A stretch of DNA of 64,000 bases from Nanobdellota archaeon (GTDB lineage: Archaea > Nanobdellota > Nanobdellia > Woesearchaeales > GW2011-AR4). The notes beneath the pieces are model-generated. The model searched no databases. It worked only from the letters and a program-made list of their open reading frames with translations, and had not been told where the DNA came from. The position numbers and the translations under genes were made by a program. The stretch covers positions 129,009 through 193,008 of the forward strand of contig JBBSWH010000006.1 of NCBI GenBank assembly GCA_038046385.1, read 5' to 3'. How positions within the stretch are numbered: the first letter of the stretch is position 1; each line of letters opens with the position of its first letter. Below, in pieces: positions 44,860 through 61,433 of the stretch.

Positions 44860-45501
44860 ATGGTTTATCCTGTGTGGAGAATAATTCTGTGGCCGTGGTA
44901 CAGGCTGTGGATAAGGAAAGTTGAAGGTTTGGAAAACATACCAAAAAACGAGCCGTTTATAATTACATTAAACCATTCAAGCTATTATGATATTGTTCTT
45001 GCATATGGAACAGTGGCATTAACCGCAAACAAAAAATTGCACTCACTCGTCAACAGCAGATACTGGGAAAATTCAGTTACAGCAACAATACTCAACCATG
45101 GGGAATGCATTCCTGTTTACGTTGATGAGGGCAAAAAATCAGAATCAAAGAATGAAGAGGCATTAAAGAAAGCACTAATTTATCTAAAAAAAGGAGAATT
45201 GGTAAAAATATTCCCTGAAGGAAGGATAAGCATTGACGGAAACTTGCAGAAAGGAAAAACTGGCGCTGCAAAGCTTGCAATTGAAGCCAATGTTCCGGTG
45301 CTCCCTATAGGACTGATAAACACAGATAAAGTACTTCCAAGAGGAAAATTCTTCCCAAGATTCAGAAGATGCGATATAAAAATAGGAAAACCACTGCATT
45401 TTAATTATGCAAAAAACCCAGACGAAAAAGTGATTGAAGCAACCACATCGAAAATAATGAAAGAGATTGCAAAATTAACAAATAAAACATACAACTACTA
45501 A
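44860..45501 (+). CDS. plsC: PlsC-family (lyso)phospholipid acyltransferase 1
   Basis: NHSSYYD (HX4D), FPEGR, KTGAAKLA, VPVLPIG. Confidence 0.9.
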   Translation: MVYPVWRIILWPWYRLWIRKVEGLENIPKNEPFIITLNHSSYYDIVLAYGTVALTANKKLHSLVNSRYWENSVTATILNHGECIPVYVDEGKKSESKNEEALKKALIYLKKGELVKIFPEGRISIDGNLQKGKTGAAKLAIEANVPVLPIGLINTDKVLPRGKFFPRFRRCDIKIGKPLHFNYAKNPDEKVIEATTSKIMKEIAKLTNKTYNY

Positions 45502-45502
45502 G

Positions 45503-46120
45503 ATGGCATATCCAATCGGAAAAAGGATTCTTGTACCAATATTTAATATGTGGGTGAAAGAAATAAGAGGAATAGAAAATCTTCCTAAGACAGCTTACAT
45601 AATAGCCGCAAACCACGCAAGCTATATGGACCACCCAATAATTGTTTGCAATGTTGTAAAGCACCAAAACAGAAAAGTTCATTTTCTCTCGAAGAAGGAG
45701 CACTTTGACAATCCGCTAAAGGCGATGTGGCACACTTATGCAGGCGCAATTCCCCTAGACAGGGAAAAAAAAGGAAAGAAAGCATTAAGATTGGCAATAA
45801 AAACACTTAAAGACGGGAAAATAATTGCAATACACCCTGAAGGAACAAGGTCACTGACAGGAAAACTTATTGGAGCAAAGACGGGAGTTGCGAGACTTGC
45901 ATTATTGTCAGGCGTTCCGGTTGTCCCGATAGGGCTAATCGGAACTTTTGAAATACTTCCAAAAGGAAAATATATACCTAAGATGAAAAAAGCAACAATG
46001 AACATAGGAAAGCCGATGCAGTTCAGCAATAAAAATATTAATAGGAAGAACTTAAGGGACATAACAACGAAAATAATGGAAGAGATAGCAAAACTATCGA
46101 ACCAGAAATACGAATACTAA
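45503..46120 (+). CDS. plsC: PlsC-family acyltransferase 2
   Basis: NHASYMD, AIPLDR, PEGTRS, KTGVARLA. Confidence 0.92.
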   Translation: MAYPIGKRILVPIFNMWVKEIRGIENLPKTAYIIAANHASYMDHPIIVCNVVKHQNRKVHFLSKKEHFDNPLKAMWHTYAGAIPLDREKKGKKALRLAIKTLKDGKIIAIHPEGTRSLTGKLIGAKTGVARLALLSGVPVVPIGLIGTFEILPKGKYIPKMKKATMNIGKPMQFSNKNINRKNLRDITTKIMEEIAKLSNQKYEY

Positions 46121-46121
46121 A

Positions 46122-47093
46122 ATGAAAATTGCAGTAATAGGGGCAGGATCGTGGGGAACAACTTTAGCAGTTATTCTCGGAGAAAAAGGATATGACACAA
46201 GGCTGTGGGCAAGAAGAGAAGAGCTTGCAAAAGAAATCAACGACAAAAAAGAAAACAAGGAATATCTCCCAAATGTAAAAATACCAAACAGCGTGATTGC
46301 AACAAGCTCATTAAAGGATGCAATTGAAAATACTGACATCATTTTTATTTCTGTTCCGAGCATTTATCTAAGGGACACATTAAAAAAAATAAAGCCGTTT
46401 TATAAATCCCAGATAGTTGTATCGACGACAAAAGGGTTTGAAGTATCTGGCAAAAGAATGTCGCAGATAATAGAAGAAGAACTTCAAACTGTAAAAGTTG
46501 CAGTGCTATCGGGACCAAATCATGCAGAAGAGGTTAGCATGAAGATGCCTACAGCAAGCATTGTTGCGTGCAAAAATCTCAAGACAGGAAAAATAATATG
46601 CGATGTTCTCCAGACTCAGTATTTTAAATTGTATGAGCTGGACGATGTTATAGGGACAGAGATATGCGCTGCGCTGAAAAATATTGCAGCGCTTGCAACA
46701 GGCGCATGCGACGGACTTGGATTTGGCGATAATTCAAAGGCAGCAATAATTACATTGAGTTTAATGGAAATGAACAATTTCGGAAGGCATTTTGGAGCAA
46801 AAAGGGGAACAGTTTACGGGCTTGCGGGAGTCGGTGATTTGGTTGCGACGTGCATGAGCAGGCATTCAAGAAACAGAAAAGTCGGAGAGCAATTGGCAAA
46901 AGGCAAGACAATGGAAGAAATAAAAAAAGAAATGAAAGGAATGGTTGCAGAAGGAATATCGGCGACAAAATCAGTCTATGAATACAGCAAAAAGCACAAT
47001 ATAGAGATGCCCTTGACGCAGCAGGCTTATGAAGTCATCTTCCAAAATAAAAATATGATGAAAGCTTTGAAAGATTTGTTGAGGATTGTTTAA
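46122..47093 (+). CDS. gpsA: NAD(P)H-dependent glycerol-3-phosphate dehydrogenase
   Basis: GAGSWGT, LSGPNHAEEV, ALKN, GLAGVGDLVATC.S.HSRN, AEG. Confidence 0.95.
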   Translation: MKIAVIGAGSWGTTLAVILGEKGYDTRLWARREELAKEINDKKENKEYLPNVKIPNSVIATSSLKDAIENTDIIFISVPSIYLRDTLKKIKPFYKSQIVVSTTKGFEVSGKRMSQIIEEELQTVKVAVLSGPNHAEEVSMKMPTASIVACKNLKTGKIICDVLQTQYFKLYELDDVIGTEICAALKNIAALATGACDGLGFGDNSKAAIITLSLMEMNNFGRHFGAKRGTVYGLAGVGDLVATCMSRHSRNRKVGEQLAKGKTMEEIKKEMKGMVAEGISATKSVYEYSKKHNIEMPLTQQAYEVIFQNKNMMKALKDLLRIV

Positions 47094-47094
47094 A

Positions 47095-47946
47095 ATGAAA
47101 ATAGGATTTATCGGATTGGGGCTGATGGGAAATCCAATGGCAAAAAATATTCTTAAGTCAAAATTTTATTTATCAGTTTACAACAGGACTTCTTCAAAAA
47201 CAACAGAACTGAAAAAACTCGGAGCAATTGTTTGCAAGACTCCAAAAGAAATTGCAGATAATTCAGATGTGATAATTACAATGGTTACCGGCCCAGATGA
47301 CGTCAAGAAAATTCTTTTTGGTAAAAACAGCGCTTCAAAATCTAAAAACAAGCCAATAGTAATTGATATGAGCACAATAGGGCCAAAAGCAGCAAAGGAA
47401 ATTGCTTTAAAATTAAAAAAACAAAAAATAGAATTTATTGATGCGCCTGTGACCGGAAGCACGCCTGCTGCAATTTCAGGAACACTTACAATTTTTGTCG
47501 GAGGAAACAAAAATATTTTTGATAAAATAAAGCCAGTGCTGGAAGCGATGGGAAAAAATATACATTATACAGGAAAAACAGGATCAGGCCAGGCAATAAA
47601 ACTCGTGAATAACATGATTGTTGCAATAGAGATGGTTGCTGTTGCAGAGGCAATGCTTTTGGCAGACGAACAAAAAATTTCAAGGAAAATGGCGTTTGAA
47701 GCGCTGGAAAACGCGCCAATAATGTCAAATTACATGAGAATGAAGATGAATAACATAGTCAATAATGACTTTTCAACTTTATTTTCTGCAAGAAACATGG
47801 AAAAAGACCTCAAGCTTGCGATAAAAGAAACAAAGAAAAAACTTCCTTTCCTTGAAAAAACAAAAAAATTATTTTCAAAAACAATAGAGAAAGGCCTCGG
47901 AGAAAAAGACCTTTCAATAATAATAAAGCATCCGGAAAAAAACTAA
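47095..47946 (+). CDS. Beta-hydroxyacid dehydrogenase (3-hydroxyisobutyrate/tartronate semialdehyde reductase family)
   Basis: FIGLGLMG.PMA, DMSTI, DAPVTG, GSGQAIKLVNN, KDL. Confidence 0.88.
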   Translation: MKIGFIGLGLMGNPMAKNILKSKFYLSVYNRTSSKTTELKKLGAIVCKTPKEIADNSDVIITMVTGPDDVKKILFGKNSASKSKNKPIVIDMSTIGPKAAKEIALKLKKQKIEFIDAPVTGSTPAAISGTLTIFVGGNKNIFDKIKPVLEAMGKNIHYTGKTGSGQAIKLVNNMIVAIEMVAVAEAMLLADEQKISRKMAFEALENAPIMSNYMRMKMNNIVNNDFSTLFSARNMEKDLKLAIKETKKKLPFLEKTKKLFSKTIEKGLGEKDLSIIIKHPEKN

Positions 47947-49339: not shown

Positions 49340-50074
49340 CTAAAAGCTGAAGCCCCCGTCTACACATATCACTTCACCGGTTATGTAGGAAGCCTTGTCA
49401 GAAGCCAAAAATCCAACTAAATTGGCAACATCTTCAGGCAATCCCGGCCTTCCTAAGGGAATCATGGCCATAATTATCTTTCTTCTTATGAACGGAACGC
49501 TTTTGGTCATTTGCGTATCAATAAAACCAGGGGCTACTGCGTTTACTGTTATTTTTCTTTTTCCAAGCTCCTTTGCAAGAGATTTTGTAAATCCTATTAT
49601 TCCTGCTTTGGAAGCTGCATAGTTTGTCTGGCCAAAATTACCGGAAATTCCTACAATTGAACTCATATTGATTATTTTGCTGCCATCTTTCATAACAGGC
49701 AATGCGTTCTTGCACATGTTGAAAACACTGTCAAGATTTGTTTTTATTACCGTATCCCACTGATGCTTTTCCATGTTCTTCAGGGTTTTATCAGACAATG
49801 CGCCTGCATTGTTCACAAGCACATCCACATTTCCAAATTTTTTCTTAACAATCTCTATCATTTCAGCGCAGTCATCGAATTTTGAAACATCTGCTTTTAC
49901 AGCTATTGAATCAACACCCAGTTTTTTTATTTCGCTCACAACAGCAACAGCTTCTTGCTCATCCCTGTAATAATTAACTATCACATTCATTCCGTTTTTT
50001 GCAAGCTCCATTGCAATCGCTCTTCCAATACCTTTTGAAGATCCTGTAACTAACGCAGTTTTTTTGTTTTCCAT
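49340..50074 (-). CDS. fabG: 3-oxoacyl reductase (FabG/PhaB-like SDR)
   Basis: TGSSKGIG, NNAG, GNFGQTNYAASK, VAPGFIDT.MT. Confidence 0.9.
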   Translation of the reverse strand: MENKKTALVTGSSKGIGRAIAMELAKNGMNVIVNYYRDEQEAVAVVSEIKKLGVDSIAVKADVSKFDDCAEMIEIVKKKFGNVDVLVNNAGALSDKTLKNMEKHQWDTVIKTNLDSVFNMCKNALPVMKDGSKIINMSSIVGISGNFGQTNYAASKAGIIGFTKSLAKELGKRKITVNAVAPGFIDTQMTKSVPFIRRKIIMAMIPLGRPGLPEDVANLVGFLASDKASYITGEVICVDGGFSF

Positions 50075-50080
50075 TTTACC

Positions 50081-51049
50081 TCAGCTTGTTTTAAACGCCG
50101 TAAAGTAGGCGCATTCTATTGTATAGTGAGTAGAATCCGCCATTGGATTGTTTGCAGCCAAATCACTGAACAATTTTTCTGCTGACATGACAATCAGTTT
50201 ATCTCTGTCTTCCTCTTCTTCAGGAGAAGGATCTTTTCCGCCTATTTCAGGAAGTATTCCTGCCTGAAGCCTTTTTACCCTTAAGAAATTCATCCAGTCT
50301 TTGTAAGCAACCTTAAAAGTTTTGAATTTTGGAATTTCAAATGTAAATTTTGCTGATTTTAATGCTTCAAGATACGTTTCAGCGGGCCTCGGATTCGGGA
50401 AAACGAATTTTTGCTGCTTATTTTCCATTTCTATTTTTTTATCCAAGCCTTCCTGATATTTTTTGAATCTTTTGTCGATGCGCACTATATCCAGTGCCAT
50501 CTCACGCACTTTTTTTATTGTATCATCAACCATTAACACTCCTTTTTTTCTGTTTTTATTGTCAATGTTTCCACTCTGGAAAGTAAAAGTTCCCTTCTTC
50601 TTTAAAGAATCATAGATGCCCCTGAAAGTTTCTTTGATGTCCGGTATAAGATGGACGGTGTTTGCGCACATAACATGGTCAGCAGCTTCTTCTCCGATAG
50701 TTTCTGCAAGCGTTGCATAACGGTCATTTGTTTTATTTAGGAGGAAACACTTAACATTTTCATCTGATTTGAAAATATCATGCGCATTTCCAAGCCACGC
50801 TGCCGAATTATCAACAATCCACAATTTGAAATTTTTATGAACTCTTTTTAGAAGCCTCAATGCGGAAACTCCAGTTCCTGCTCCAAAGTCAACAACAATT
50901 TCATCATTTTTTATCTTTGGATCCATTGCTTCCATTAACTCATCAAGGATTTCAGTATAGTAAGGTGCATCTACAACAGCTTCATGATATGCAATAGCTC
51001 CTTTCGAAACCTGACGATCCGGGTGCCATGGCTTTATTTCGTAAGTCAT
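50081..51049 (-). CDS. Class I SAM-dependent methyltransferase
   Basis: VVDFGAGTG motif I; embedded in the fab/thiolase operon. Confidence 0.8.
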   Translation of the reverse strand: MTYEIKPWHPDRQVSKGAIAYHEAVVDAPYYTEILDELMEAMDPKIKNDEIVVDFGAGTGVSALRLLKRVHKNFKLWIVDNSAAWLGNAHDIFKSDENVKCFLLNKTNDRYATLAETIGEEAADHVMCANTVHLIPDIKETFRGIYDSLKKKGTFTFQSGNIDNKNRKKGVLMVDDTIKKVREMALDIVRIDKRFKKYQEGLDKKIEMENKQQKFVFPNPRPAETYLEALKSAKFTFEIPKFKTFKVAYKDWMNFLRVKRLQAGILPEIGGKDPSPEEEEDRDKLIVMSAEKLFSDLAANNPMADSTHYTIECAYFTAFKTS

Positions 51050-51061
51050 TTTATCTTCTCC

Positions 51062-51108
51062 AGTATCATAAAAATTTTCTCTAAATTTTTAGGATCCCGA
51101 AAAATGCT
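51062..51108. repeat. 47-bp hairpin-containing repeat downstream of thiolase 1 (second copy 53696-53742)
   Basis: agtatcataaaaatttYctctaaatttttaggatcccgaaaaatgct, one mismatch between copies; taaaaattt/aaattttta stem. Confidence 0.85.
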
Positions 51109-52241
51109 CAACATTTTTCGAGGATGTGTACAGTAACAGAGCTTCCTGCACCGCCAATATTCTGCGCAAGGCCGTATTTGATGTTGCCAATCTGCCGTTC
51201 TCCAGCGAGTCCGCGCATCTGCTTTGCAAGCTCATATATCTGCGACAATCCAGTTGCGCTGATTGGATGGCCCTTTGCTTTAAGGCCGCCGCTTGTGTTA
51301 ACGGGCAGTTTTCCGTTGATATTGGTAAATCCTTCCCTTATAAGATTTTTTGCTTCTCCCGGCTTGCAAAAACCAAGGTCTTCATACGAAATAAGCTCCA
51401 CAGAGGTAAATGCATCATGCAGCTCTGCAATGTCAATATCGCTTGGTGAGATTCCGGCTTGTTTGTAAGCCTCTGCTGCAGATGCTCTTGAAGCATGCCA
51501 CGAAGTTAAATCATCACGCTCAAAAGGAGCAAGGAAATCAGTTTCATCAGCAGCTCCTATTATTTTGATGTCAGATTCATTTTTTGAAATAACGGCAGTT
51601 GCAGCGCCGTTTGCAGGTATGCTGCAGTCAAACAATCTCAATGGAGAAGCAACTACCGGAGATTTTTTTATTTCTTCCAATGTAACATTTTTCCTGTAAA
51701 ATCTTGCTTTGGGATTCATATATGCGTTATTGTGATTTTTAAAAGCAACAAGCGCAAGATCATCCATCGTAACATTGTGCTTTATCATGTACTGCTGCGC
51801 AACCAACGCATTTTCGGCTGGAAAATTCATGCCTTCGGATTGCTCATAGATTCTTTCTGTTCCCATAAGCATTTCGTCTGTGATTCTTTTTCCAATATTA
51901 GTTACCATTTTTTCAAATGATACTACGAGTATGTTTTTGTAATTGCTTGTCTTGTGTATTTGAGTGGCTGTCCACAATGCTGTTCCCCCTCCTGAACATC
52001 CTGCAGGAACAGATAGTATTGGCATTTTTTTCTGGAAAAGGCTGCTTAACATAGAAGAACTATGGCGCTGTCGCTCTCCATTGCTTATGATATCGTTATT
52101 GGAAACAACAACTGCGTCAATTTCATTCATTGAAAGGCTGGAATCATCAAGCGCTTCCATGACTGCTTCATGCACCAGATGGCTTGATGCAGCTTCATCT
52201 ATGCTAAACCTGGTCATGCCAACCCCTTTTATGAACATCAC
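51108..52241 (-). CDS. Thiolase (archaeal/SCP2-type) 1
   Basis: AGCSGGG active Cys, ELHDAF, GHPISATG, QNIGG. Confidence 0.92.
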   Translation of the reverse strand: MMFIKGVGMTRFSIDEAASSHLVHEAVMEALDDSSLSMNEIDAVVVSNNDIISNGERQRHSSSMLSSLFQKKMPILSVPAGCSGGGTALWTATQIHKTSNYKNILVVSFEKMVTNIGKRITDEMLMGTERIYEQSEGMNFPAENALVAQQYMIKHNVTMDDLALVAFKNHNNAYMNPKARFYRKNVTLEEIKKSPVVASPLRLFDCSIPANGAATAVISKNESDIKIIGAADETDFLAPFERDDLTSWHASRASAAEAYKQAGISPSDIDIAELHDAFTSVELISYEDLGFCKPGEAKNLIREGFTNINGKLPVNTSGGLKAKGHPISATGLSQIYELAKQMRGLAGERQIGNIKYGLAQNIGGAGSSVTVHILEKC

Positions 52242-53680
52242 TTTATCACTCTTGAAAGCAATTTTTGCATTTTTGTTTTTACTTTGTCTATGTTGGTTAT
52301 CTTTGGGGCGCCTTCTGTTGTAAGCAGCTTCTTCAGCAAAATCAGCTGCTCAACGCTGTCAGTTTCTTCATTTATTGATGCGAATCCAAGGCCCATGCTT
52401 TCAAACTTGTTTATTGCGCAGTTTCCAAGAACAACAACCCTCTGCTTTTCTTTCAGAACGTTTGGATCAAGACAGGAGCCTATTGCAATATACAGCTCAT
52501 TTCCCCTTATCCCTATAAGTTTTGAAGTAAGGCTGTACATGAGATTCAAACATGCAGGGCACGCTTTTCCATCAATAACTTTTATGTCAGAATGCGGAGT
52601 TTCATGCAATGATGGCTGTTTTATCGGATATTTTAATGCTTCAATTTCATTTCCGACAGTCTCTATTTTTTTAGCGCTTAAACTGTCAGAAACATAATGC
52701 GGGACAGGAAGCATGCATACTTCACAAAAAGCAGCATCAACTGCAGCAGGAGTTTTCCCTGCAAAAATCAAACTCAAAAAAGCAGGCTCTCCTAAATGCA
52801 GCGGGCCTTGGCCCTGCATTCCGTTGGATGCATCTGCAACCGTTATCACATTTTTCAAAGCATCGACAAGCTTTGGCAGTGTTTTTTCGATGTCGTTTTG
52901 GTACATCTCTCTTTGAGTTTTTTCATCACATAATCTTGAAAGGTTTTCCATTGCGCCGCTTATTCCAATTTGAAAATTTGTTTTCATGATTGGAGCATTT
53001 ATTATCTTCCTCTCAATTGCTTCCTTGAAAACGCTGAATTTCATGTTTCCATGCTCAACAGTTTCAAACGGCCCTTTTGAAATATCTGCAAATACAATCT
53101 CATTTTTCCTGCAGACTTCAAGAATCCCGGCTTTGGAAGCAGTGTCCATCACATCAAATCCTATTAATGCCTGTTCTGCAACAAGAATATTTTCTTTTTT
53201 TATTCCCTTTTCAATCAGAATCTTAATCAAAGCATCAAGGAATTCTGGATTTGTATTGACTGTTTGATATGGATATGCTGCCGATACAACTGAAGGCTTA
53301 ATAAGCACTCTGTCGCTTTCAGAAATTTCCAAACCTTTCAAAAGGCCAATCGCTTCTTTGATTGCTTCATAAACATCATATTTTATTCTTGTTATTGCAA
53401 CAGCATCGTCTGTTTTAGCATTTTCAATATTAAACAAGTCTCCTATCTTGTAGTCTTTCATGGTTTTTCTTGGAATTTTATTGCCATGCTCATCTTCAAG
53501 AAGCGCTATGTTATACGGGACTATTGGGTGCATTGGAGATGCTATCATAACTTTAGTAAACCCAATTACTTTTAGTTTTGAACCAAGCTGTTTTGAAATC
53601 TGACCTTTGCAAAAAGCACACTTCTCAACAGGGTAAATCCATTTCTTATTGCATTTTTCACAAATCCACCGTATTATCAT
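52238..53680 (-). CDS. DUF35-like Zn-ribbon/OB domain fused to a DUF362 domain
   Basis: N-terminal CEKC...CAFC + PYNIALLE OB fold; VLIKPS...TNPE, IINAPIMKT, GQGP..GEP, D-x-A and CPAC of DUF362. Confidence 0.75.
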   Translation of the reverse strand: MIIRWICEKCNKKWIYPVEKCAFCKGQISKQLGSKLKVIGFTKVMIASPMHPIVPYNIALLEDEHGNKIPRKTMKDYKIGDLFNIENAKTDDAVAITRIKYDVYEAIKEAIGLLKGLEISESDRVLIKPSVVSAAYPYQTVNTNPEFLDALIKILIEKGIKKENILVAEQALIGFDVMDTASKAGILEVCRKNEIVFADISKGPFETVEHGNMKFSVFKEAIERKIINAPIMKTNFQIGISGAMENLSRLCDEKTQREMYQNDIEKTLPKLVDALKNVITVADASNGMQGQGPLHLGEPAFLSLIFAGKTPAAVDAAFCEVCMLPVPHYVSDSLSAKKIETVGNEIEALKYPIKQPSLHETPHSDIKVIDGKACPACLNLMYSLTSKLIGIRGNELYIAIGSCLDPNVLKEKQRVVVLGNCAINKFESMGLGFASINEETDSVEQLILLKKLLTTEGAPKITNIDKVKTKMQKLLSRVIK

Positions 53681-53741
53681 TATTTCACCTTTTCAAGTAT
53701 CATAAAAATTTCCTCTAAATTTTTAGGATCCCGAAAAATGC

Positions 53742-54860
53742 TTAGCATTTTTCCAGGATATGAACCGTAACTGTGCTTCCTGCACCGCCAATATTCTGCG
53801 CAAGGCCGTATTTGATGTTGCCAATCTGCCGTTCTCCAGCGAGTCCGCGCATCTGCTTTGCAAGCTCATATATCTGCGACAATCCAGTTGCGCTGATTGG
53901 ATGGCCCTTTGCTTTAAGGCCGCCGCTTGTGTTAACGGGCAGTTTTCCGTTGATATTGGTAAATCCTTCCCTTATAAGATTTTTTGCTTCTCCCGGCTTG
54001 CAAAAACCAAGGTCTTCATACGAAATAAGCTCCACAGAGGTAAATGCATCATGCAGCTCTGCAATGTCAATATCGCTTGGTGAGATTCCGGCTTGTTTGT
54101 AGGCTTCCTGCGCTGTAATCTTGGATGCAGGCCATGTTGTCATATCTTCACTTTCAAAAGAAGATAATCTATCAACGCACAATGAAGAAGCTTTGATTTC
54201 AATATCACTTTTATCTTTTGACAACACCGCAGCCGCGGCCCCGTTTACAGAAAGGCTGCAGTCAAAAAGTCTTAATGGAGAAGCAACTACCGGAGACTTT
54301 TGGATTTGCTTTAAAGTAACTGCTTTTTTGTAGAACTTAGCTTTAGGATTCATGTAAGCATTCTGATGGTTCTTGAAAGCCACAAGCGCAAGGTCATCCA
54401 TAGTTGCCTTGTATCTCATCATGTATTGCTGCGCAACAAGCGCATTCTGAGCCGGAAAATTCAAGCCTTCAGATTGCTCGTAGATTCTTTCAGCAGCCAT
54501 CATGATTTCATCTGTTAGCCTTGGAGATGTGTTAGTTAGTAGTTTTTCAACCCCAACAACAAGGATATTGTTATAATTCATTTTTCCTGCTGTCCACAAA
54601 GCTGCACCTCCGCCGCCGCAGACTGCAGTTGAGTTGAGAATCGGAACCTTTTTCTTAAGAATGCTGCTAAGGACGCATGCAAAAAGACGCTGGCGTTCGC
54701 CCGTGCTTTCGTTGTCAATTGAGGAAACAACAACCGCATCAATATCTTCCATTGAAATATTGGAATCTTCAACAGCTTCAACTGCAGCTTCATAGACAAG
54801 CGCCTGGCTTGTGCTCTGCTGCGAACCGAACTTTGTCATTCCAACCCCTTTTATGAACAT
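53742..54860 (-). CDS. Thiolase (archaeal/SCP2-type) 2
   Basis: AVCGGGG active Cys, ELHDAF, GHPISATG. Confidence 0.92.
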   Translation of the reverse strand: MFIKGVGMTKFGSQQSTSQALVYEAAVEAVEDSNISMEDIDAVVVSSIDNESTGERQRLFACVLSSILKKKVPILNSTAVCGGGGAALWTAGKMNYNNILVVGVEKLLTNTSPRLTDEIMMAAERIYEQSEGLNFPAQNALVAQQYMMRYKATMDDLALVAFKNHQNAYMNPKAKFYKKAVTLKQIQKSPVVASPLRLFDCSLSVNGAAAAVLSKDKSDIEIKASSLCVDRLSSFESEDMTTWPASKITAQEAYKQAGISPSDIDIAELHDAFTSVELISYEDLGFCKPGEAKNLIREGFTNINGKLPVNTSGGLKAKGHPISATGLSQIYELAKQMRGLAGERQIGNIKYGLAQNIGGAGSTVTVHILEKC

Positions 54861-54869
54861 AGAAACACC

Positions 54870-55361
54870 TTAATTGGAATATCTTTCCCTAAACTCCGTT
54901 CTGTTTACTATCGCCAGCATTATAAGGGCTTCTGCTGCACACACTCCTTTTACAAAAGCCTTGCCCTTTAAGATAGCGCCCCTTTCATCCTGCGCTATTA
55001 GGTCAAGCTCAAATCTTGCTTCATCACCTGGGAGTATTGGAGAATTAAATTTAACCTCTTTTAACCTATAGGCAAGAACATCTTTTTCATGATGGTTTGG
55101 AATATTGCTTCTTGCAAGCAAAGTAGCTGCCTGACCCATTCCTTCAACGGTTAAAGCGCCCGGCATTATGGGGAAACCAACAAAATGACCTTTTAGAAAA
55201 TCTTCATTGCTTTTTACTTTCTTAACAGCCACTATCCTATTGCTGCTCAACTCCAAAACCCGATCTATAAATAGAAAATGCTCATTGTAAGGGATTATCT
55301 TCTTGATGTTTTCTGTATTTATTTCGCCTTTTTCGTCCTTTAGCTCGCTGAAATGAGTCAT
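54870..55361 (-). CDS. fabZ: 3-hydroxyacyl dehydratase FabZ
   Basis: FLFIDRV, GHFVGFPIMPGAL.VEGMGQ, PGD. Confidence 0.92.
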   Translation of the reverse strand: MTHFSELKDEKGEINTENIKKIIPYNEHFLFIDRVLELSSNRIVAVKKVKSNEDFLKGHFVGFPIMPGALTVEGMGQAATLLARSNIPNHHEKDVLAYRLKEVKFNSPILPGDEARFELDLIAQDERGAILKGKAFVKGVCAAEALIMLAIVNRTEFRERYSN

Positions 55362-55513: not shown

Positions 55514-57430
55514 ATGCTAAAGGGCAAAAAAGCAAAAATTAGGTTAGGAATAAGAAAAAAACTACTCATAAACAGCCTTAATATCGCACTAAAGCCAGTT
55601 GAAAAAGCATTCTCTTTTGGAAAGAACTCGGCAATTAAAGCAAAAGAGCAATTTCCTGCGATTTACAGGTATTTTGACGGAATAGTAAAACAACACGTAA
55701 TAACTCCAGGCATGAGCCTCTTCACAACAAAAAAATTCGGAGATATTGGCAATTTTATAACAGCAAGCGTGATGAAAAGAATTCCGCATGTGGACGAATC
55801 AAAGGTTGCCGAAATCCTGAACAATCCAGCTGATAAATCACTTCTTGAGACTTTTACAAAAGGACTCGGACCATGGAAAAAAAGATCATATACTGTACTT
55901 GGCAATGAACGATTCAAAAAAGTCCTTATAGCAAATAGGGGAGAAATTGCTTTAAGAATTATAAGGGCATGCCGTGAACTTAACATCGAAAGCGTTGTAA
56001 TATACTCGGATGAAGAAGTAGATTCTCTTTTGGTAAAGTTTGCAGACAGGGCATACAATATAGGCAAGCCTAAAAACTACCTCAATATAAGAAAAATAGT
56101 CAGGATTGCTAAAAAATCAGGATGCGATGCAATACATCCCGGATATGGATTTCTTTCAGAGAACCCAAAATTTGCAAGTATATGTGAGAAAAAAGGTATT
56201 AAGTTTATAGGACCATCTTCAAAAATGATAGAAAGCCTTGGAGATAAGGTTGAAGCAAAGAAGGCAATGCTAAAAGCAAATATTCCTGTAATTGAAGGGG
56301 TCAAACAGGATTTGAAAAGCAAGGGACACGCTTTGAAGGTTGCAAGGGGGGTTGGATTTCCTGTAATAATCAAGGCATCGGCAGGAGGCGGGGGAAAAGG
56401 AATGAGGATTGTGACAAAGGAAGAAGAAATAGGAGACTCTTTTGACAATGCCCAAAAAGAGGCAATGAATGCTTTCGGAGACTCTTCTGTTTACATAGAG
56501 AGCTATCTTGAAGACCCACGCCATGTCGAATTTCAGATACTGGCAGATAGATACGGGAATGTTGTACATCTTGGGGAGAGGGACTGCAGCATACAGAGAA
56601 GGCATCAAAAACTTGTTGAAGAATCACCAAGCCCAGCTTTGGACCAGGAGTTAAGGGAAAAGATGGGCGCAGCTGCTGTAAATGCAGTAAAATCAGTAGG
56701 ATATGAGGGAGCAGGCACAGTTGAATTTTTGCTTGACAAGAGCAAAAACTTCTATTTCATAGAAATGAATACCAGGATACAGGTTGAGCATGGAGTAACT
56801 GAGATGGTTACGGGTGTTGATCTTGTAAAGGAGCAGATAAAAATAGCAGAGGGCGCAAGACTTACATTTAGGCAGGAAGACATAAAGATACAAGGATATG
56901 CAATAGAATGCAGGATAAATGCAGAAGACCCGTCAAACGGATTCGTACCATCTCCAGGAACAATTGTCAATTATCTTCCTCCAGGAGGGCCAGGAATCCG
57001 TGTTAGCAGCGTTGCACATGCAGGATACAAGATATTACCTCAGTTTGATTCCCTTATTGCATTGCTTATATGCCATGGAAGAACAAGAAATGAGGCAATC
57101 ATAAGGATGAAGAGGTCACTTGATGAATTCATAATAGAAGGGGTCAAGACAACAATTCCATTCCATAAAGCAGTGTTAAGCAAGAGGCAATTTGCAAGAG
57201 GAAGCATAAACACTTCTTTCATAGCAAACAACAAGATAGTGGAAGAACTGAAGACAATGAAGCCAAGGAAGCAAAAACTCCCAAAAGACAAAAGAGTTAT
57301 CATTGTGACAACAGCAGTTGCGCAGTATCTTGCAAAGAAAAACAACAATAATCATCACCAACAAAAACATAATCCATGGGTAACTGCATCAAGGCACGAA
57401 TCAACAAACGAAGGAACTCTCGAAGAATAA
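55514..57430 (+). CDS. accC: Biotin carboxylase with N- and C-terminal extensions
   Basis: KVLIANRGEIA, HPGYGFLSEN, GGGGKGMR, ERDCSIQRRHQK, EMNTRIQVEH. Confidence 0.95.
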   Translation: MLKGKKAKIRLGIRKKLLINSLNIALKPVEKAFSFGKNSAIKAKEQFPAIYRYFDGIVKQHVITPGMSLFTTKKFGDIGNFITASVMKRIPHVDESKVAEILNNPADKSLLETFTKGLGPWKKRSYTVLGNERFKKVLIANRGEIALRIIRACRELNIESVVIYSDEEVDSLLVKFADRAYNIGKPKNYLNIRKIVRIAKKSGCDAIHPGYGFLSENPKFASICEKKGIKFIGPSSKMIESLGDKVEAKKAMLKANIPVIEGVKQDLKSKGHALKVARGVGFPVIIKASAGGGGKGMRIVTKEEEIGDSFDNAQKEAMNAFGDSSVYIESYLEDPRHVEFQILADRYGNVVHLGERDCSIQRRHQKLVEESPSPALDQELREKMGAAAVNAVKSVGYEGAGTVEFLLDKSKNFYFIEMNTRIQVEHGVTEMVTGVDLVKEQIKIAEGARLTFRQEDIKIQGYAIECRINAEDPSNGFVPSPGTIVNYLPPGGPGIRVSSVAHAGYKILPQFDSLIALLICHGRTRNEAIIRMKRSLDEFIIEGVKTTIPFHKAVLSKRQFARGSINTSFIANNKIVEELKTMKPRKQKLPKDKRVIIVTTAVAQYLAKKNNNNHHQQKHNPWVTASRHESTNEGTLEE

Positions 57431-57461
57431 GTTTATAATTTTGTATTCTATACACTAAACC

Positions 57462-58181
57462 ATGGTTTTCAAAACATATCATTTTAAGTCGATTTCTTCG
57501 ACACAGGATAAGGCAAAGGAATTTGCGTCAAAAGGACTTGAAAATATTGCGGTTATTTCTGACGTGCAGACAAAAGCAAGAGGCCGCTTCAAAAGGAAAT
57601 GGCATTCTTCCAGAGGCGGATTGTGGATGTCAATACTTGTAAAACCAGGTAATATGGGTAAAATGCAGTATCTTACTTTCTGCGCTGCAATAGCAGCAGC
57701 AGATTCAATAAAAAAATTATCAAAGCTTAACGTAAAAATAAAATGGCCCAACGATGTTCATTACAACAGAAAAAAACTGTGCGGCATACTCACAGAAGGG
57801 CATTTTGGAAAAAATGATTATGCAATAATCGGCATAGGAATCAATACAAACCAGACAAAATTTTCAAATGATATAAAAAATACAGCGGCGTCTATAAAAT
57901 CAATCACACACAAAAATACAGACATTAAAAAATTATCACAAATTATCACAACCAATTTCTTCAATCTATACAATAATTATTACTGTAAAAATAAATTTGA
58001 AGAAATAATGCAGAAATGGAAATCAAATTCCGATACAATCGGAAAAAAAGTAAAAGTAATAACAACAAAAAAAACATTTATTGGAAATGTAATAAACATT
58101 GACGAAGATTGCAATTTAATAATCAAATATAAAAACAAAAAAAACAAGATAGTTGAAGGAGACGTGTCAATAAGATATTAG
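57462..58181 (+). CDS. birA: Biotin-protein ligase (no HTH)
   Basis: SSTQD, QTKARGR, KWPND, KKLCGIL.E, GIGIN. Confidence 0.93.
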   Translation: MVFKTYHFKSISSTQDKAKEFASKGLENIAVISDVQTKARGRFKRKWHSSRGGLWMSILVKPGNMGKMQYLTFCAAIAAADSIKKLSKLNVKIKWPNDVHYNRKKLCGILTEGHFGKNDYAIIGIGINTNQTKFSNDIKNTAASIKSITHKNTDIKKLSQIITTNFFNLYNNYYCKNKFEEIMQKWKSNSDTIGKKVKVITTKKTFIGNVINIDEDCNLIIKYKNKKNKIVEGDVSIRY

Positions 58182-58576
58182 CCGAGCTTTAGCTTTCTTT
58201 TTATATTATCTGGTATCTTTATCGATTTCATCTTCTTGCCGTCTACAAAAACATTTACGGTGTGGCCTTCAGCAAGTATTTTTTTGTCATTTTTTCTGAA
58301 TACTTTGTTCTCAAATCTTATGGATTTCTCTTTTATCTGCGCTATTTTTGTTTCAATAACAACCAAATCGTCATATCTCGCAGGAGCAAAATAATTGCAG
58401 TGCGCCTCTACAACCGGCGTTAGGATATTTTTCTTCTGGATTGCGTACAAATCTATTTTTAAGTTTCTTAGCAATTCACGCCGTCCGCTTTCAAACCACT
58501 TGAAGTAATTTGCGTAATACACTACTTGTCCGGCGTCAGTGTCGGCATAAATAACTCGATGTTTTATTTTATTCAT
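58178..58576 (-). CDS. Acyl-CoA thioesterase (YbgC/FadM hot-dog family)
   Basis: VIYADTDAGQVVYYANYFKWFESGR. Confidence 0.9.
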   Translation of the reverse strand: MNKIKHRVIYADTDAGQVVYYANYFKWFESGRRELLRNLKIDLYAIQKKNILTPVVEAHCNYFAPARYDDLVVIETKIAQIKEKSIRFENKVFRKNDKKILAEGHTVNVFVDGKKMKSIKIPDNIKRKLKLG

Positions 58577-58603
58577 AATAATAGCTAGATTGGGGGGTAT
58601 TTA

Positions 58604-58876
58604 TTGATTTCCACAATGTTTAAAAGGAACACCATGCTACTACACGTTATGGGATTCATAGATAATGTGCCTATGCTGAAGAAAATTATTGATATAGGAT
58701 ACGCAATGCTCTTCGTCATAATAATCAGCGCAGTTGTAGGCTTAGTGCTTGCATTTCCGGTCATGTGGCTTTGGAATTTTATATTCGGAAATTTTCTTAA
58801 GATAGATGTTCTGCAGGCGTGGGCATTAAATCTTCTTGTCGGAATTCTTTTTGGGCAGAGAAGCACTAATAAATAA
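58604..58876 (+). CDS. Small membrane protein (start uncertain)
   Basis: Hydrophobic; PVMWLWN...QAWAL motif. Confidence 0.55.
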   Translation: MISTMFKRNTMLLHVMGFIDNVPMLKKIIDIGYAMLFVIIISAVVGLVLAFPVMWLWNFIFGNFLKIDVLQAWALNLLVGILFGQRSTNK

Positions 58877-59582
58877 TAAAAATAATAGATATGATGGCTG
58901 CTATTGATGCATAATCTGCCATGCCGAGATTTAACTTTTTTATTGTATTAGCATCTTCATTGTACAGCCTCGAGTGCATGGCGTCAGCAAGATTTGAAGC
59001 GGTGCGCATCATCTTCTCCATGAGCACAACTACAACAAGTCTGATATGACTTGGATTCCTGAAATCAGCAAGCCTGGCAAGCATAGCTTCCCTCAATTTT
59101 TCAAAAGACACAAACATTGCAGGCACGAATCTTATTGCAATAGAAACCATTACGGCAATATTTCTTGGCTTCACTCCAAAAGCCTTCAAAGGCATAGAGA
59201 AAAATTGCATAGAAGCAACAATATCTGAAATTTCTGTAGTAAAAGAAAATATAAATGACATAGAGACCAGCAGGAAAAATCTCCAGACAGAAAAAATACC
59301 TTTTGCGATTTCATAAGGGGAGAAAATCAGATACATTATAATTATAAATCCGAAGATAAAATAAAAATTTCTCATGTTAGAGAAAAAATTCCGAATACTC
59401 ATACCAGATACTGCAGAAATCAAAACAATGAATGAAGTCATGACAATAAACTGGTAAGCTGAATCCATAATAAAAATAAAAATGCTCAGAATAACGAGGC
59501 ATGCCAGCTTTACTCTTGGGTCTATCGAATGCACAGCAGAATTTTTTTGCCTGTATTGTCCGAATATTATATTTTTATGCAT
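58866..59582 (-). CDS. ecfT: ECF transporter transmembrane subunit
   Basis: HSIDPRVKL, IAIRFVP, two (A/S)R coupling motifs. Confidence 0.88.
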   Translation of the reverse strand: MHKNIIFGQYRQKNSAVHSIDPRVKLACLVILSIFIFIMDSAYQFIVMTSFIVLISAVSGMSIRNFFSNMRNFYFIFGFIIIMYLIFSPYEIAKGIFSVWRFFLLVSMSFIFSFTTEISDIVASMQFFSMPLKAFGVKPRNIAVMVSIAIRFVPAMFVSFEKLREAMLARLADFRNPSHIRLVVVVLMEKMMRTASNLADAMHSRLYNEDANTIKKLNLGMADYASIAAIISIIFIIY

Positions 59583-60279
59583 AAATTCCCGCTTTCTTGA
59601 TTATCCCATTTTTGAGTTCTGATTTCTTTCCTTCAAATATGACCTTTCCTGATTTCATAACAACAACTTTTCCAGCATATTTCAGATCATCCATAGAATT
59701 AGTTACCAATATTGGGGTTATCCCTTCTCTAGAAATCCGTTTTATAGTTGACATTATTTTTTTCCTGTTGATTGGATCAAGCATGGTTGCAGGTTCATCA
59801 AATACTGCATATTTTGGCTCCATAGCAAGAACTCCTGCAATGGCCACAAGCTGGCGCTGTCCTATTGATAAGGTGTTGACATTCTTTTTTGCAAGATTGC
59901 CGATGCCAAGCCCTTCCATAGTTTTTTTTACAATTATTTTTACATCGTTGCTTCCCAGCCCAATATTTTCAAGTCCGAACGATATATCTTCTTCAACAAC
60001 AGGATACACTATTTGATCTTCAAAGTTCTGGAAGACAAAGCCCACCTTTTTTCTTGCATTAAACTCATCCTTCTTTGTGCTTATGCCGTCTACAAAAACA
60101 TCCCCTTTTTTTGGTATGAGAAGCCCGTTCAGATGCTTTGCAAGGGTAGTCTTGCCTGAACCGTTTGCACCAATTATTGCAGTAATCACTCCCTCATTCA
60201 CATGCATGCTTGCATTTTCCAGCACGTAATCATCTTCATACCTAAAAAAAAGTTTTTTTGCCTCTATCATCCAAATCAA
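59575..60279 (-). CDS. ecfA: ECF transporter ATPase
   Basis: GANGSGKTT, VGFVFQN, LSIGQRQ, DEP..MLDP. Confidence 0.9.
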   Translation of the reverse strand: MIWMIEAKKLFFRYEDDYVLENASMHVNEGVITAIIGANGSGKTTLAKHLNGLLIPKKGDVFVDGISTKKDEFNARKKVGFVFQNFEDQIVYPVVEEDISFGLENIGLGSNDVKIIVKKTMEGLGIGNLAKKNVNTLSIGQRQLVAIAGVLAMEPKYAVFDEPATMLDPINRKKIMSTIKRISREGITPILVTNSMDDLKYAGKVVVMKSGKVIFEGKKSELKNGIIKKAGIYA

Positions 60280-60287
60280 ACCACGTT

Positions 60288-61040
60288 TTATTTCATGAAT
60301 CTTTTCATGTCAGTGTTTTTGGCTATCCATGCAGCCAGAATAATTTTTAAGGTGTCTCCTAATATGAAGGGAAGAACCCACCCTACAAAGATTGCATTCC
60401 ATGCAAGACCAGTCACTAATTTACCCTGTAAAGCACCCATGGCATAAATAATTGCTGTGCCGGCAAACATAGCCAAAACAGTTTCAAAATCTAGTTTCTT
60501 GAAACTCTTGGAATATTTTGCAAGAGCTGCGAGAACAGCAAGCACTAGGATGCTGATTGCAATTAAAAATAACCTCTGCTGACTTGATAGGGCAGAAACC
60601 ATTGAACCCGCTTTGAGCTTCATTATTCCTATGTTGAATATTGCATCAAAAGCAACTATGGAGACCATGATAAGGATTACGACAAATGACAAATATTTGA
60701 TTATTACACTTATTTTTTTAGATTTTGTCATCTTTCCTATGACAAATGCAGCAAGGGGATAACTAAAGAGGTAACCTCCCGTCGGGCCAAGCAATACACC
60801 TATTCCTGAAGAGCCTCCGGCAAAAACAGGCAGGCCAATCGCTCCGAGCAAAAGATAGATTATCATTGCAAGTGCTCCATAATAGGCACCAAGAACGGCT
60901 CCGCTTAGTAATACAAGGAGAGTCTGCAAAGTTATAGGCACTGGAGTAAATGGAAGAGGTATCTTAAACCAAGCCACAGCTGCTGTGAGCGCAGCGAACA
61001 TAGCTGCAAAAATCATCCATTTAAGTTTGTCTTTTTTCAT
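60288..61040 (-). CDS. bioY: Biotin ECF S-component BioY
   Basis: PFTPVPITLQT, GLPVFAGG, GPTGGYL, PF..GD..K. Confidence 0.93.
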   Translation of the reverse strand: MKKDKLKWMIFAAMFAALTAAVAWFKIPLPFTPVPITLQTLLVLLSGAVLGAYYGALAMIIYLLLGAIGLPVFAGGSSGIGVLLGPTGGYLFSYPLAAFVIGKMTKSKKISVIIKYLSFVVILIMVSIVAFDAIFNIGIMKLKAGSMVSALSSQQRLFLIAISILVLAVLAALAKYSKSFKKLDFETVLAMFAGTAIIYAMGALQGKLVTGLAWNAIFVGWVLPFILGDTLKIILAAWIAKNTDMKRFMK

Positions 61041-61048
61041 TTTACCTC

Positions 61049-61432
61049 CTATTCTATGACTGCTAATACCTGCCCTCTGCTCACGCTGTCATTTTTTTTT
61101 ACATTAATCTCTTTTATTATGCAGTTCCTTGGCGCAGTTATTTCATTCTCCATTTTCATTGCCATCAATGTGAACATGCTCTGGCCTGTTTTTAATTTGT
61201 CCCCTTTTTTTATTTTAATATCATAAACAATCCCAGGCAACGGAGCAGTAACATCTTTTTCAGAATTATCTGATTTGCCATGAATCTTCTCGATTGCAGA
61301 AGGTATTGCATCTTTTTTTGTCTCTACTTCATAGACTTCATTTTCAGAATGAACAAGAATTTTGCCGTCTTCTGTTTCCTCTACAAAAACTTTGTATTCC
61401 TTGCCGTCTACTTTAACAACTAATTCTTCCAT
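61049..61432 (-). CDS. Biotin carboxyl carrier protein
   Basis: APLPG...AMKMENEI biotinylation motif. Confidence 0.93.
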   Translation of the reverse strand: MEELVVKVDGKEYKVFVEETEDGKILVHSENEVYEVETKKDAIPSAIEKIHGKSDNSEKDVTAPLPGIVYDIKIKKGDKLKTGQSMFTLMAMKMENEITAPRNCIIKEINVKKNDSVSRGQVLAVIE

Positions 61433-61433
61433 T

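Follow-up and report, generated by a model that had tools for sequence, protein, structure and literature searches.

What might a DUF362 protein do when it is fused to a putative thiolase-docking domain and encoded between two thiolases? The question is raised by a gene for such a fusion (P0001) in a 64,000-nt stretch of DNA, here called the window (contig JBBSWH010000006.1 of assembly GCA_038046385.1, positions 129,009–193,008, forward strand), from a Woesearchaeal DPANN archaeon. The original prediction for this locus read the operon as fabZ, thiolase, DUF35-DUF362, thiolase, methyltransferase (MT), and fabG, assigned a scaffold role to the fusion, and proposed that its DUF362 part may carry out the enoyl reduction for which the operon has no gene. 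The open reading frames (ORFs) and their Pfam and NCBIfam matches confirm this gene order. We put at about even the chance that the fusion is the docking or hub subunit of a CoA-based, acyl carrier protein (ACP)-independent assembly resembling a fatty acid synthase (FAS), with a DUF362 body that is not a reductase.

Fold searches with Foldseek and VIA divided an AlphaFold model of the fusion (built on 82 sequences; pLDDT 94.7, pTM 0.92) into three parts. The N-terminal part (residues 1–84 or 1–98) matches DUF35 proteins solved as parts of thiolase complexes, namely BbsA (7pxp, Z 7.1), ChsH2 (6ok1_D, Z 7.0), PhlB (5m3k_B, Z 7.0), and 6esq_E, the DUF35 member of the thiolase/HMG-CoA synthase complex (Z 6.6). 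Foldseek E-values of the DUF35 matches range from 1.6e-4 to 9e-4, and sequence identity to the 6esq_E/F chain is 26–27%. The four cysteines of the zinc ribbon (C7, C10, C21, and C24) are invariant in all 23 aligned N-termini. DUF35, which we take to consist of a PF12172 zinc ribbon and a PF01796 OB fold, had no Pfam match in the fusion even at E≤10; Pfam finds DUF362 alone (PF04015; residues 125–320, with 200 of 200 profile positions covered; 97.1 bits, gathering cut-off 24; E 1.9e-27). A profile of the 23 N-termini (~100 residues) run against PDB sequences reached DUF35 only at E 0.12 (6htj) and 0.18 (6esq_E), ranked below chance matches, and the PUF repeats at the top of that list appear spurious. 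Because of the fold matches and the invariant cysteines, but with a sequence profile that is not significant, we regard the predicted DUF35-DUF362 fusion as real, its DUF362 half assigned by Pfam and its DUF35 half by fold and context.

Docking on the thiolase was modeled with the whole fusion and the downstream thiolase (thiolase B). The complex scored 0.83 in each of three runs and the best of three controls scored 0.00; of 157 solved complexes, 116 attained that mark, as did 2 of 215 mismatched pairs. Contacts agree between the runs to at least 94%, and the partner pLDDT is at least 91. On the fusion, the contacts lie in the OB domain (residues 15, 40–51, 56–60, 68–72, 79, and 98–101) and at residue 303; on thiolase B, they lie at residues 119–153, 195–200, and 238–241. 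The model supports the view that the OB domain docks on the thiolase, although its pass may reflect likeness only, because similar complexes have already been solved (6esq and 7pxp). The overlap between the stop of the fusion and the start of thiolase B is present as predicted: the two share a TGATG (...AAG TGA TG TTC...), which amounts to 1 nt with an ATG start and 4 nt with a GTG start.

The second part of the fusion (residues ~98–400) matches the LarA superfamily of nickel-pincer-nucleotide (NPN) racemases and epimerases (DUF2088), with Z-scores of 18.8 (7s91), 18.7 (9eia), and 17.1 (5huq) over ~211 residues (rmsd 2.7–3.0). In the accessible text of PMC11770544, DUF362 and the LarA N-domain belong to the same Pfam clan (CL0471). 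Unlike LarA proteins, the fusion has no DUF2088 Pfam match and carries an Fe-S-type domain, and its identity to LarA structures is 9–14%. The family profile reaches a LarA-type malate racemase at E 0.002, and the sole sequence alignment to a LarA fold (6d6z, E 0.002) spans 73 profile positions. In the window's own genome (G000; 1.28 Mb in 19 contigs, 85% complete), a search for NPN-cofactor genes covering larC and larE gave no match for larC (PF01969) and 27.5 bits for larE (TIGR00268) against a cut-off of 150; larB was not searched.

The third part (residues 363–460) is flavodoxin-like. In fold it is matched best by small subunits of NiFe hydrogenases and by NuoB-type subunits (Z 5.5–6.8), with CheY-like receivers scoring about equally, and the family profile reaches hydrogenase small subunits and NuoB at E 0.0035–0.1; three of the four cluster cysteines are present in the fusion. 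This resemblance to cluster-binding domains speaks for the proposal that the missing enoyl-CoA reduction falls to the DUF362 body, acting as an Fe-S-dependent C=C reductase within the thiolase complex of lineages that have no acyl-CoA dehydrogenase (Acd) with EtfAB. That proposal loses ground because the fold of the core points to LarA-type chemistry and, among the matches listed, to no reductase. None of the known enoyl reductase families (FabI/FabL SDR, FabK, FabV, MDR, acyl-CoA dehydrogenase (ACAD)/ETF, and OYE) is among the Pfam and NCBIfam matches of the fusion, no known enoyl reductase fold is among the Foldseek and VIA matches listed for it, and we found no likeness to a flavin fold or a classical dinucleotide motif. 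An ESM Atlas search with residues 99–480 returned DUF362 clusters only. Structure prediction and Foldseek, which had been suggested as a check, thus recovered the DUF35 fold at the N-terminus but, among the matches listed, no reductase in the core.

The fusion resembles stand-alone DUF362 proteins in its clear Pfam match and its two-domain body. We compared residues (in query numbering) between 43 stand-alone representatives and 39 aligned fusions. The C-terminal domain of stand-alone DUF362 carries the motif CxxC...GxC...GCPP, with each cysteine present in 40–41 of the 43. CPAC (residues 374–377), noted in the original prediction as an Fe-S motif, is part of this family-wide motif, but only three of its four cysteines occur in the fusion. 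The full four-cysteine motif is kept in 6 of the 39 fusions. In the window's clade, C374, C377, and C421 are retained and the GCPP cysteine is gone, its position being taken by E439 in the query and by N, K, D, or S in the clade. Four fusions (P0124, P0125, P0127, and P0128) have lost all motif cysteines, and the whole C-terminal domain is absent from 18 of the 39 (short forms, about 340–380 amino acids).

The pocket of the core differs from that of stand-alone DUF362 as well, through N130S, H235N, K245E, G249R, K256Q, H260Y, and E289Q. Five of these positions (N130, H235, K245, H260, and E289) are kept in 31–42 of the 43 stand-alone proteins, and the replacement of these five polar residues, like the missing fourth cysteine, counts against a reductase. 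The differences do not amount to free decay. Among 121 close relatives (at least 440 residues long and sharing 59–99% identity with the query in the best local alignment), C374, C377, and C421 are kept in 119–121, E438 in 119, and the altered pocket (S130, N235, E245, R249, Y260, and Q289) in 117–121; the conserved polar pocket of these relatives consists of K128, K233, E245, N246, R249, Y260, D283, and D315. The motif is decaying in this lineage, yet the three-Cys/Glu site and the pocket are strongly constrained in the window's clade. The near invariance of the three cysteines and Glu438 favors a reductase.

The fabZ-thiolase-fusion-thiolase-fabG core occurs in all 23 loci fetched with the fusion, as well as in L031, L032, L037–L041, and L044, and acetyl-CoA carboxylase and biotin ligase lie upstream in those of the 23 loci where the contig extends far enough. 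Close relatives of the fusion carry the labels Woesearchaeota or Nanoarchaeota. Of 151 genomes sampled from the order, 28 had a match, and 16 of these matches were taken as fusions because they begin at residue 1–3; this count includes the unpublished genome G132, which enters no other result. Between their second thiolase and fabG, long-form clusters (the window, L004, L007, L009, L011–L013, and L031) have the MT and often a family III CoA-transferase. In short-form clusters, Acd, EtfB, and an EtfA bearing a ferredoxin domain precede two PlsC genes and GpsA. The two cassettes, CoA-transferase with MT (L004, L007, L011–L013, and L031) versus Acd-EtfB-EtfA (L015–L019, L037–L039, and L044), sit at about the same place.

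Natural fusions tie further members of the cluster together. In genome G103, DUF35, DUF362, and FabG form one 743-amino acid frame (L032:7478–9709), with FabG joined at the end of the C-terminal helix of the fusion. The G103 cluster also has four pyruvate:ferredoxin oxidoreductase (POR)-type genes before the second thiolase, and then Acd, EtfB, and EtfA with a two-cluster ferredoxin domain. G015, a family mate of the window's genome that is 98% complete (locus L031), has a long form without any cysteine in the C-terminal domain; its MT and FabG form one 570-amino acid frame (L031:14040–15752), and a fatty-acid desaturase adjoins GpsA. A further protein, P0388 (495 amino acids), has MT and FabG domains. 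Given these single frames, the MT seems to work beside the ketoreductase. The Fe-S motif is thus dispensable in a sister lineage with the same gene set, and the C-terminal domain is dispensable in short forms, including one genome (G172) that has no ACAD; the reductase proposal loses ground on both counts.

Fusions that retain the full motif occur in a different setting (L033:557–6481, L034:1–9942, and L035:3536–9426). They come after a single thiolase and are followed by GNAT- and AAC(3)-type acyltransferases, B12-radical-SAM enzymes, and glycosyltransferases; none of FabZ, FabG, or Acd was found nearby. A flippase is also present in these clusters, which are probably concerned with acyl decoration of a glycan. 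In a quick maximum-likelihood tree with SH-aLRT support only, all fusions of fatty-acid clusters form one clade (SH-aLRT 99) separate from the full-motif fusions. Inside the fatty-acid-cluster clade of this tree, the sister of the window's clade is the cysteine-less group to which G015 belongs, and the cysteines and the domain are lost on several branches. Co-occurrence with fabZ and fabG, another check suggested earlier, holds across the 23 loci but not for the full-motif fusions. The reductase proposal is weakened further because these ancestral-looking fusions, with their motif intact, pair with a thiolase outside a fatty-acid context.

Taken together, the DUF35 fold, the synteny, the TGATG overlap with the translational coupling it implies, the FabG fusion in G103, and the complex model support the scaffold role originally assigned to the fusion. 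As a docking subunit, the fusion would bind the loop domain of the flanking thiolases through its N-terminal zinc-ribbon/OB domain, and the TGATG overlap would favor co-assembly with thiolase B. The DUF362 body (LarA-like core, flavodoxin-like domain, and C-terminal helix) would hang from this anchor as a mainly structural or ligand-binding platform, inherited and remodeled, that brings FabG and probably FabZ beside the thiolases. We infer that such recruitment would channel substrate, so that the unfavorable condensation product is reduced and dehydrated at once, as with KT/DUF35, ACR, and HCD of Sulfolobus. The enoyl-CoA would then be reduced by a separate enzyme, which in short-form lineages would be the cluster-encoded Acd-EtfAB; none was identified in the window's lineage.

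In G000, we found no ACAD, ETF, FabV, or OYE and no MDR domain above cut-off, and tblastn with relatives' Acd, EtfA/B, family III CoA-transferase, POR subunits, and desaturase gave no matches. NMO-like matches, considered as FabK, were rejected, as they represent PyrD, with PyrK and PyrI for neighbors, and PdxS, with PdxT for a neighbor. A second SDR (C7:41019–41735), considered as FabI, is matched best by a TmpR-like model (268 bits), with FabL at 167 bits against a cut-off of 328. The MT was ruled out as a hidden reductase by fold search, which paired its model (pLDDT 94.0) with ordinary class I S-adenosylmethionine (SAM) methyltransferases, among them phosphoethanolamine N-methyltransferases, BioC, and natural-product methyltransferases; phmmer against PDB sequences gave no match for it. 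In G015, no ACAD, MDR, OYE, or NMO was found above cut-off.

ACAD was found in none of the 14 long-form genomes reached through the loci versus 8 of the 9 short-form ones (the exception being G172). In the order sample, ACAD was found in 10 of 15 fusion-bearing genomes; the other five comprise two with long forms, G000 and G015, and three with a completeness of 56–86%. The two genome sets overlap by at least two genomes (identical coordinates). MDR proteins are present in 12 of the 15 other long-form genomes and were not found in G000, G015, G157, or G162. A flavoprotein of the geranylgeranyl-reductase (GGR) family is present in all 26 fusion-bearing genomes (over the cut-off in 23); in G000, it is encoded at C9:21209–22300 (L113:4210–5301) and scores 192 bits against a cut-off of 159, and GGGPS and UbiA-type prenyltransferases were not found in that genome. 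The earlier claim that no enoyl reductase is encoded is therefore borne out for the window's family, as both G000 and G015 are without a recognized reductase among the families searched. The incompleteness of G000, the MDR proteins of most other long-form genomes, and the presence of a GGR-family protein throughout limit this premise.

Several of these observations weigh against a docking subunit with a non-reductase body. DUF35 membership is suggested by fold, with no match to a sequence model. In the complex model, which covers thiolase B and not FabG or FabZ, contact between the DUF362 body and the thiolase is almost nil. Conservation of the three-Cys/Glu438 site and the pocket exceeds what a passive scaffold needs. 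Finally, G000 and G015 are without any reductase family searched, and ACAD occurs in 0 of 16 long-form genomes altogether.

A first alternative is that the DUF362 body is catalytic on a thiolase product or substrate (3-oxoacyl-CoA, 3-hydroxyacyl-CoA, or malonyl-CoA) by a reaction other than C=C reduction, and so pulls condensation forward, like HMG-CoA synthase in the thiolase/HMG-CoA synthase/DUF35 complex. The strong conservation of the polar residues speaks for it, and the full-motif fusions, which follow a thiolase without FabZ or FabG, tie DUF362 to the thiolase itself. Relatives of LarA act on hydroxy acids, according to the accessible text of PMC11770544, and acetyl-CoA carboxylase is linked here to thiolases that have no known way to use malonyl-CoA. 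Neighborhoods of stand-alone DUF362 genes (46 loci, with 60 of 78 flanking ORFs scanned) include beta-keto-acid cleavage enzymes (2 loci), 2-hydroxyacid dehydrogenases (2), prephenate dehydratase (4, archaeal), and crotonase with thiolase (1), at L051, L060, L046, L080, L070, L084, L089, L102, and L106. Such neighbors may suggest that small keto or hydroxy acids or acyl-CoAs are the substrates, but the neighborhoods are heterogeneous, with no common partner. The pocket is moreover poorly kept in short forms, the searched genes for NPN-cofactor synthesis were not found, and neither a cofactor nor a reaction can be named. We consider this alternative unlikely, with an appreciable chance of being right nonetheless.

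A second alternative, compatible with the fusion being a hub, is that reduction is carried out by an unlinked enzyme (the GGR-family flavoprotein or an MDR protein) or is skipped, giving unsaturated or hydroxylated products. The distribution of the GGR-family protein favors it, as does its above-cut-off score in a genome in which GGGPS and UbiA were not found; so do the MDR proteins of most long-form genomes, and the MT and frequent family III CoA-transferase that long-form clusters carry in place of Acd-EtfAB. However, the GGR gene is unlinked and is also present alongside Acd-EtfAB, GGR-family enzymes are not known to reduce 2-enoyl-CoA, G000, G015, G157, and G162 have no MDR match, and the desaturase beside GpsA in G015 implies saturated chains. 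This alternative seems quite unlikely to us. There is likewise a small chance that, in the Woesearchaeal lineage without Acd-EtfAB, the LarA-like pocket together with the three-Cys/one-Glu site makes the DUF362 body a new kind of enzyme in the thiolase complex, either an Fe-S enoyl-CoA reductase or one with some other redox or "pulling" activity.

That the body specifically supplies enoyl reduction, as originally proposed, gained no support and is very doubtful: the contrast in ACAD between long and short forms and the absence of recognized reductases from G000 and G015 speak for it, but the contrast spans few independent lineages, MDR and GGR-family proteins are widespread, G015 shares both the cluster and the lack of a reductase while having no cysteines, G172 has neither the domain nor ACAD, and LarC and LarE were not found in G000.

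The features of the locus are collected in the table below.

Table. Coordinates (window positions), strands, and supporting evidence for the fusion, its parts, and the surrounding genes
Feature	Positions	Strand	Evidence or remarks
DUF35-DUF362 fusion gene, 480 aa (P0001)	52238–53680	−	ORF, translation, Pfam DUF362, model
Residues 1–98: zinc ribbon (C7, C10, C21, C24) and OB fold, DUF35-like, predicted thiolase-docking surface	53387–53680	−	
Residues 99–355: DUF362 core, LarA-N-like fold, altered pocket (S130, N235, E245, R249, Y260, Q289)	52616–53386	−	
Residues 356–445: flavodoxin-like, of the hydrogenase-small-subunit/NuoB kind, 3 of 4 Cys of the DUF362 motif	52346–52615	−	
CPAC, C374–C377, first two Cys of the motif	52550–52561	−	
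Residues 446–480: conserved C-terminal helix	52241–52345	−	conservation 0.82; predicted secondary structure
Thiolase B, 377 aa	51108–52241	−	start overlaps stop of fusion; retains the catalytic Cys and His motifs
Thiolase A, 372 aa, archaeal/SCP2-type	53742–54860	−	catalytic Cys and His motifs present; Pfam, NCBIfam
fabZ-like dehydratase	54870–55361	−	Pfam, NCBIfam
Class I SAM methyltransferase (MT)	50081–51049	−	Pfam, fold search; family seen here solely in Woesearchaeal records
FabG-type 3-oxoacyl reductase	49340–50074	−	TIGR01830, 305 bits against cut-off of 298
Biotin carboxylase (638 aa, extended by 133 aa at the N-terminus) and biotin ligase	55514–58181	+	divergent from fabZ; Pfam, NCBIfam
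YbgC-type acyl-CoA thioesterase, ECF/BioY biotin transporter, BCCP, carboxyltransferase	58178–62960	−	
Two PlsC-like acyltransferases and GpsA (glycerol-3-phosphate dehydrogenase)	44860–47093	+	

The six minus-strand genes from fabZ to fabG are separated, in order, by 9, 61, −1/−4, 58, and 6 nt, and together with the flanking lipid genes they constitute a complete lipid island. Thiolases A and B are 73% identical to each other, and their nearest solved relatives are 7yvy and the thiolase of 6esq (E 5e-60 for the latter). In their last third, the two genes match exactly over 327 nt (53775–54101 versus 51141–51467), the ~60-nt spacers 3' of both (53682–53741 and 51048–51107) are nearly identical to each other, and the first two thirds of the proteins have only ~62% identity. 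This pattern looks like recent gene conversion between paralogues or a collapse in assembly.

The N-terminal extension of the biotin carboxylase (133 residues, 55514–55912) has no Pfam or NCBIfam match, and long-form relatives align over it too. Between the thioesterase and ECF transporter genes, two overlapping ORFs lie on opposite strands (58585–58876); the plus-strand ORF (58604–58876) resembles a small membrane protein, and tblastn conservation there may belong to that ORF. A gene resembling HIBADH and tartronate-semialdehyde reductase (47086–47946) shares 8 nt with the end of GpsA; it was rejected as a conserved member of the cluster, as tblastn with the window protein gave no matches in L001–L023, L031–L041, or L044.

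Two further loci of G000 lie outside the window. A cluster on contig C9 (63268–66453; L028) encodes an FkbH-like phosphatase, a 76-amino acid carrier whose Pfam score falls short of the cut-off, a MaoC dehydratase, and a 306-amino acid ORF. A sub-threshold PP-binding match that might have been taken for the ACP of a fatty acid synthase is this carrier, which sits with FkbH-like, MaoC, and N-acetyltransferase genes in a separate system; the cluster gives the genome a second acyl system, of the ACP type and with no relation to the lipid island. On contig C7 (22408–23205; L115:2409–3206), a ShyD-like homologue of the sulfhydrogenase delta subunit (197 bits, a score under the cut-off) suggests that the genome has a group 3b-type hydrogenase, a possible supplier of reducing power.

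A close parallel is the fatty acid synthase complex of Sulfolobus acidocaldarius. As described in the accessible text of a preprint (10.1101/2024.07.05.601840), a KT/DUF35 pair there binds the reductase ACR and the dehydratase HCD and not the enoyl reductase; that text contains no mention of DPANN, Woesearchaeota, or Nanoarchaeota. So far as this account goes, the window is alike in having a thiolase with a DUF35-fold protein and an SDR ketoreductase and dehydratase encoded alongside, and in being CoA-based, with no fatty-acid-synthase ACP found and enoyl reduction separate. On the same account, it differs in that DUF35 is fused to a 380-residue DUF362 body and flanked by two paralogous thiolases, in that the dehydratase is of the FabZ type rather than MaoC and no MDR reductase was found in G000, and in the linkage to acetyl-CoA carboxylase, thioesterase, GpsA, and PlsC-like genes. 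The thiolase/HMG-CoA synthase/DUF35 complex of Methanothermococcus thermolithotrophicus (6esq) has homologous thiolases, the DUF35 chain nearest in identity, and an arrangement like the predicted docking of OB on thiolase. Unlike that complex, the second thiolase-fold partner in the window is a thiolase and not HMG-CoA synthase, the context is fatty acid-like rather than mevalonate, and DUF35 carries an extra body.

Parts of the gene set have been noted before, as far as the accessible texts show: FabG, FabI, and FabZ in DPANN genomes (PMC10936187), and GpsA and PlsC in Woesearchaeota (PMC6431249). In a literature search that left supplementary files outside its scope, we found no paper with DUF35 and DUF362 together, and none joining DPANN, thiolase, acetyl-CoA carboxylase, and fatty acid.

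Archaeal fatty acid synthesis through a thiolase/DUF35 complex has been described recently and in Sulfolobus only, and the window would be a second, differently built version in DPANN. Association with acetyl-CoA carboxylase, GpsA, and PlsC-like genes makes the cluster a candidate pathway by which an archaeon could form ester lipids of the bacterial type, and as such it bears on the "lipid divide". DUF362 gains its first defined setting, as a LarA-like core and an Fe-S-type domain fused to a predicted thiolase-docking domain, and a clean question is defined, namely which enzyme reduces enoyl-CoA in a lineage without Acd-EtfAB. Should the DUF362 body after all be a new enzyme, it would complete an ACP-free, malonyl-CoA-fed fatty acid synthase feeding glycerol-3-phosphate ester lipids of the bacterial type in an archaeon.

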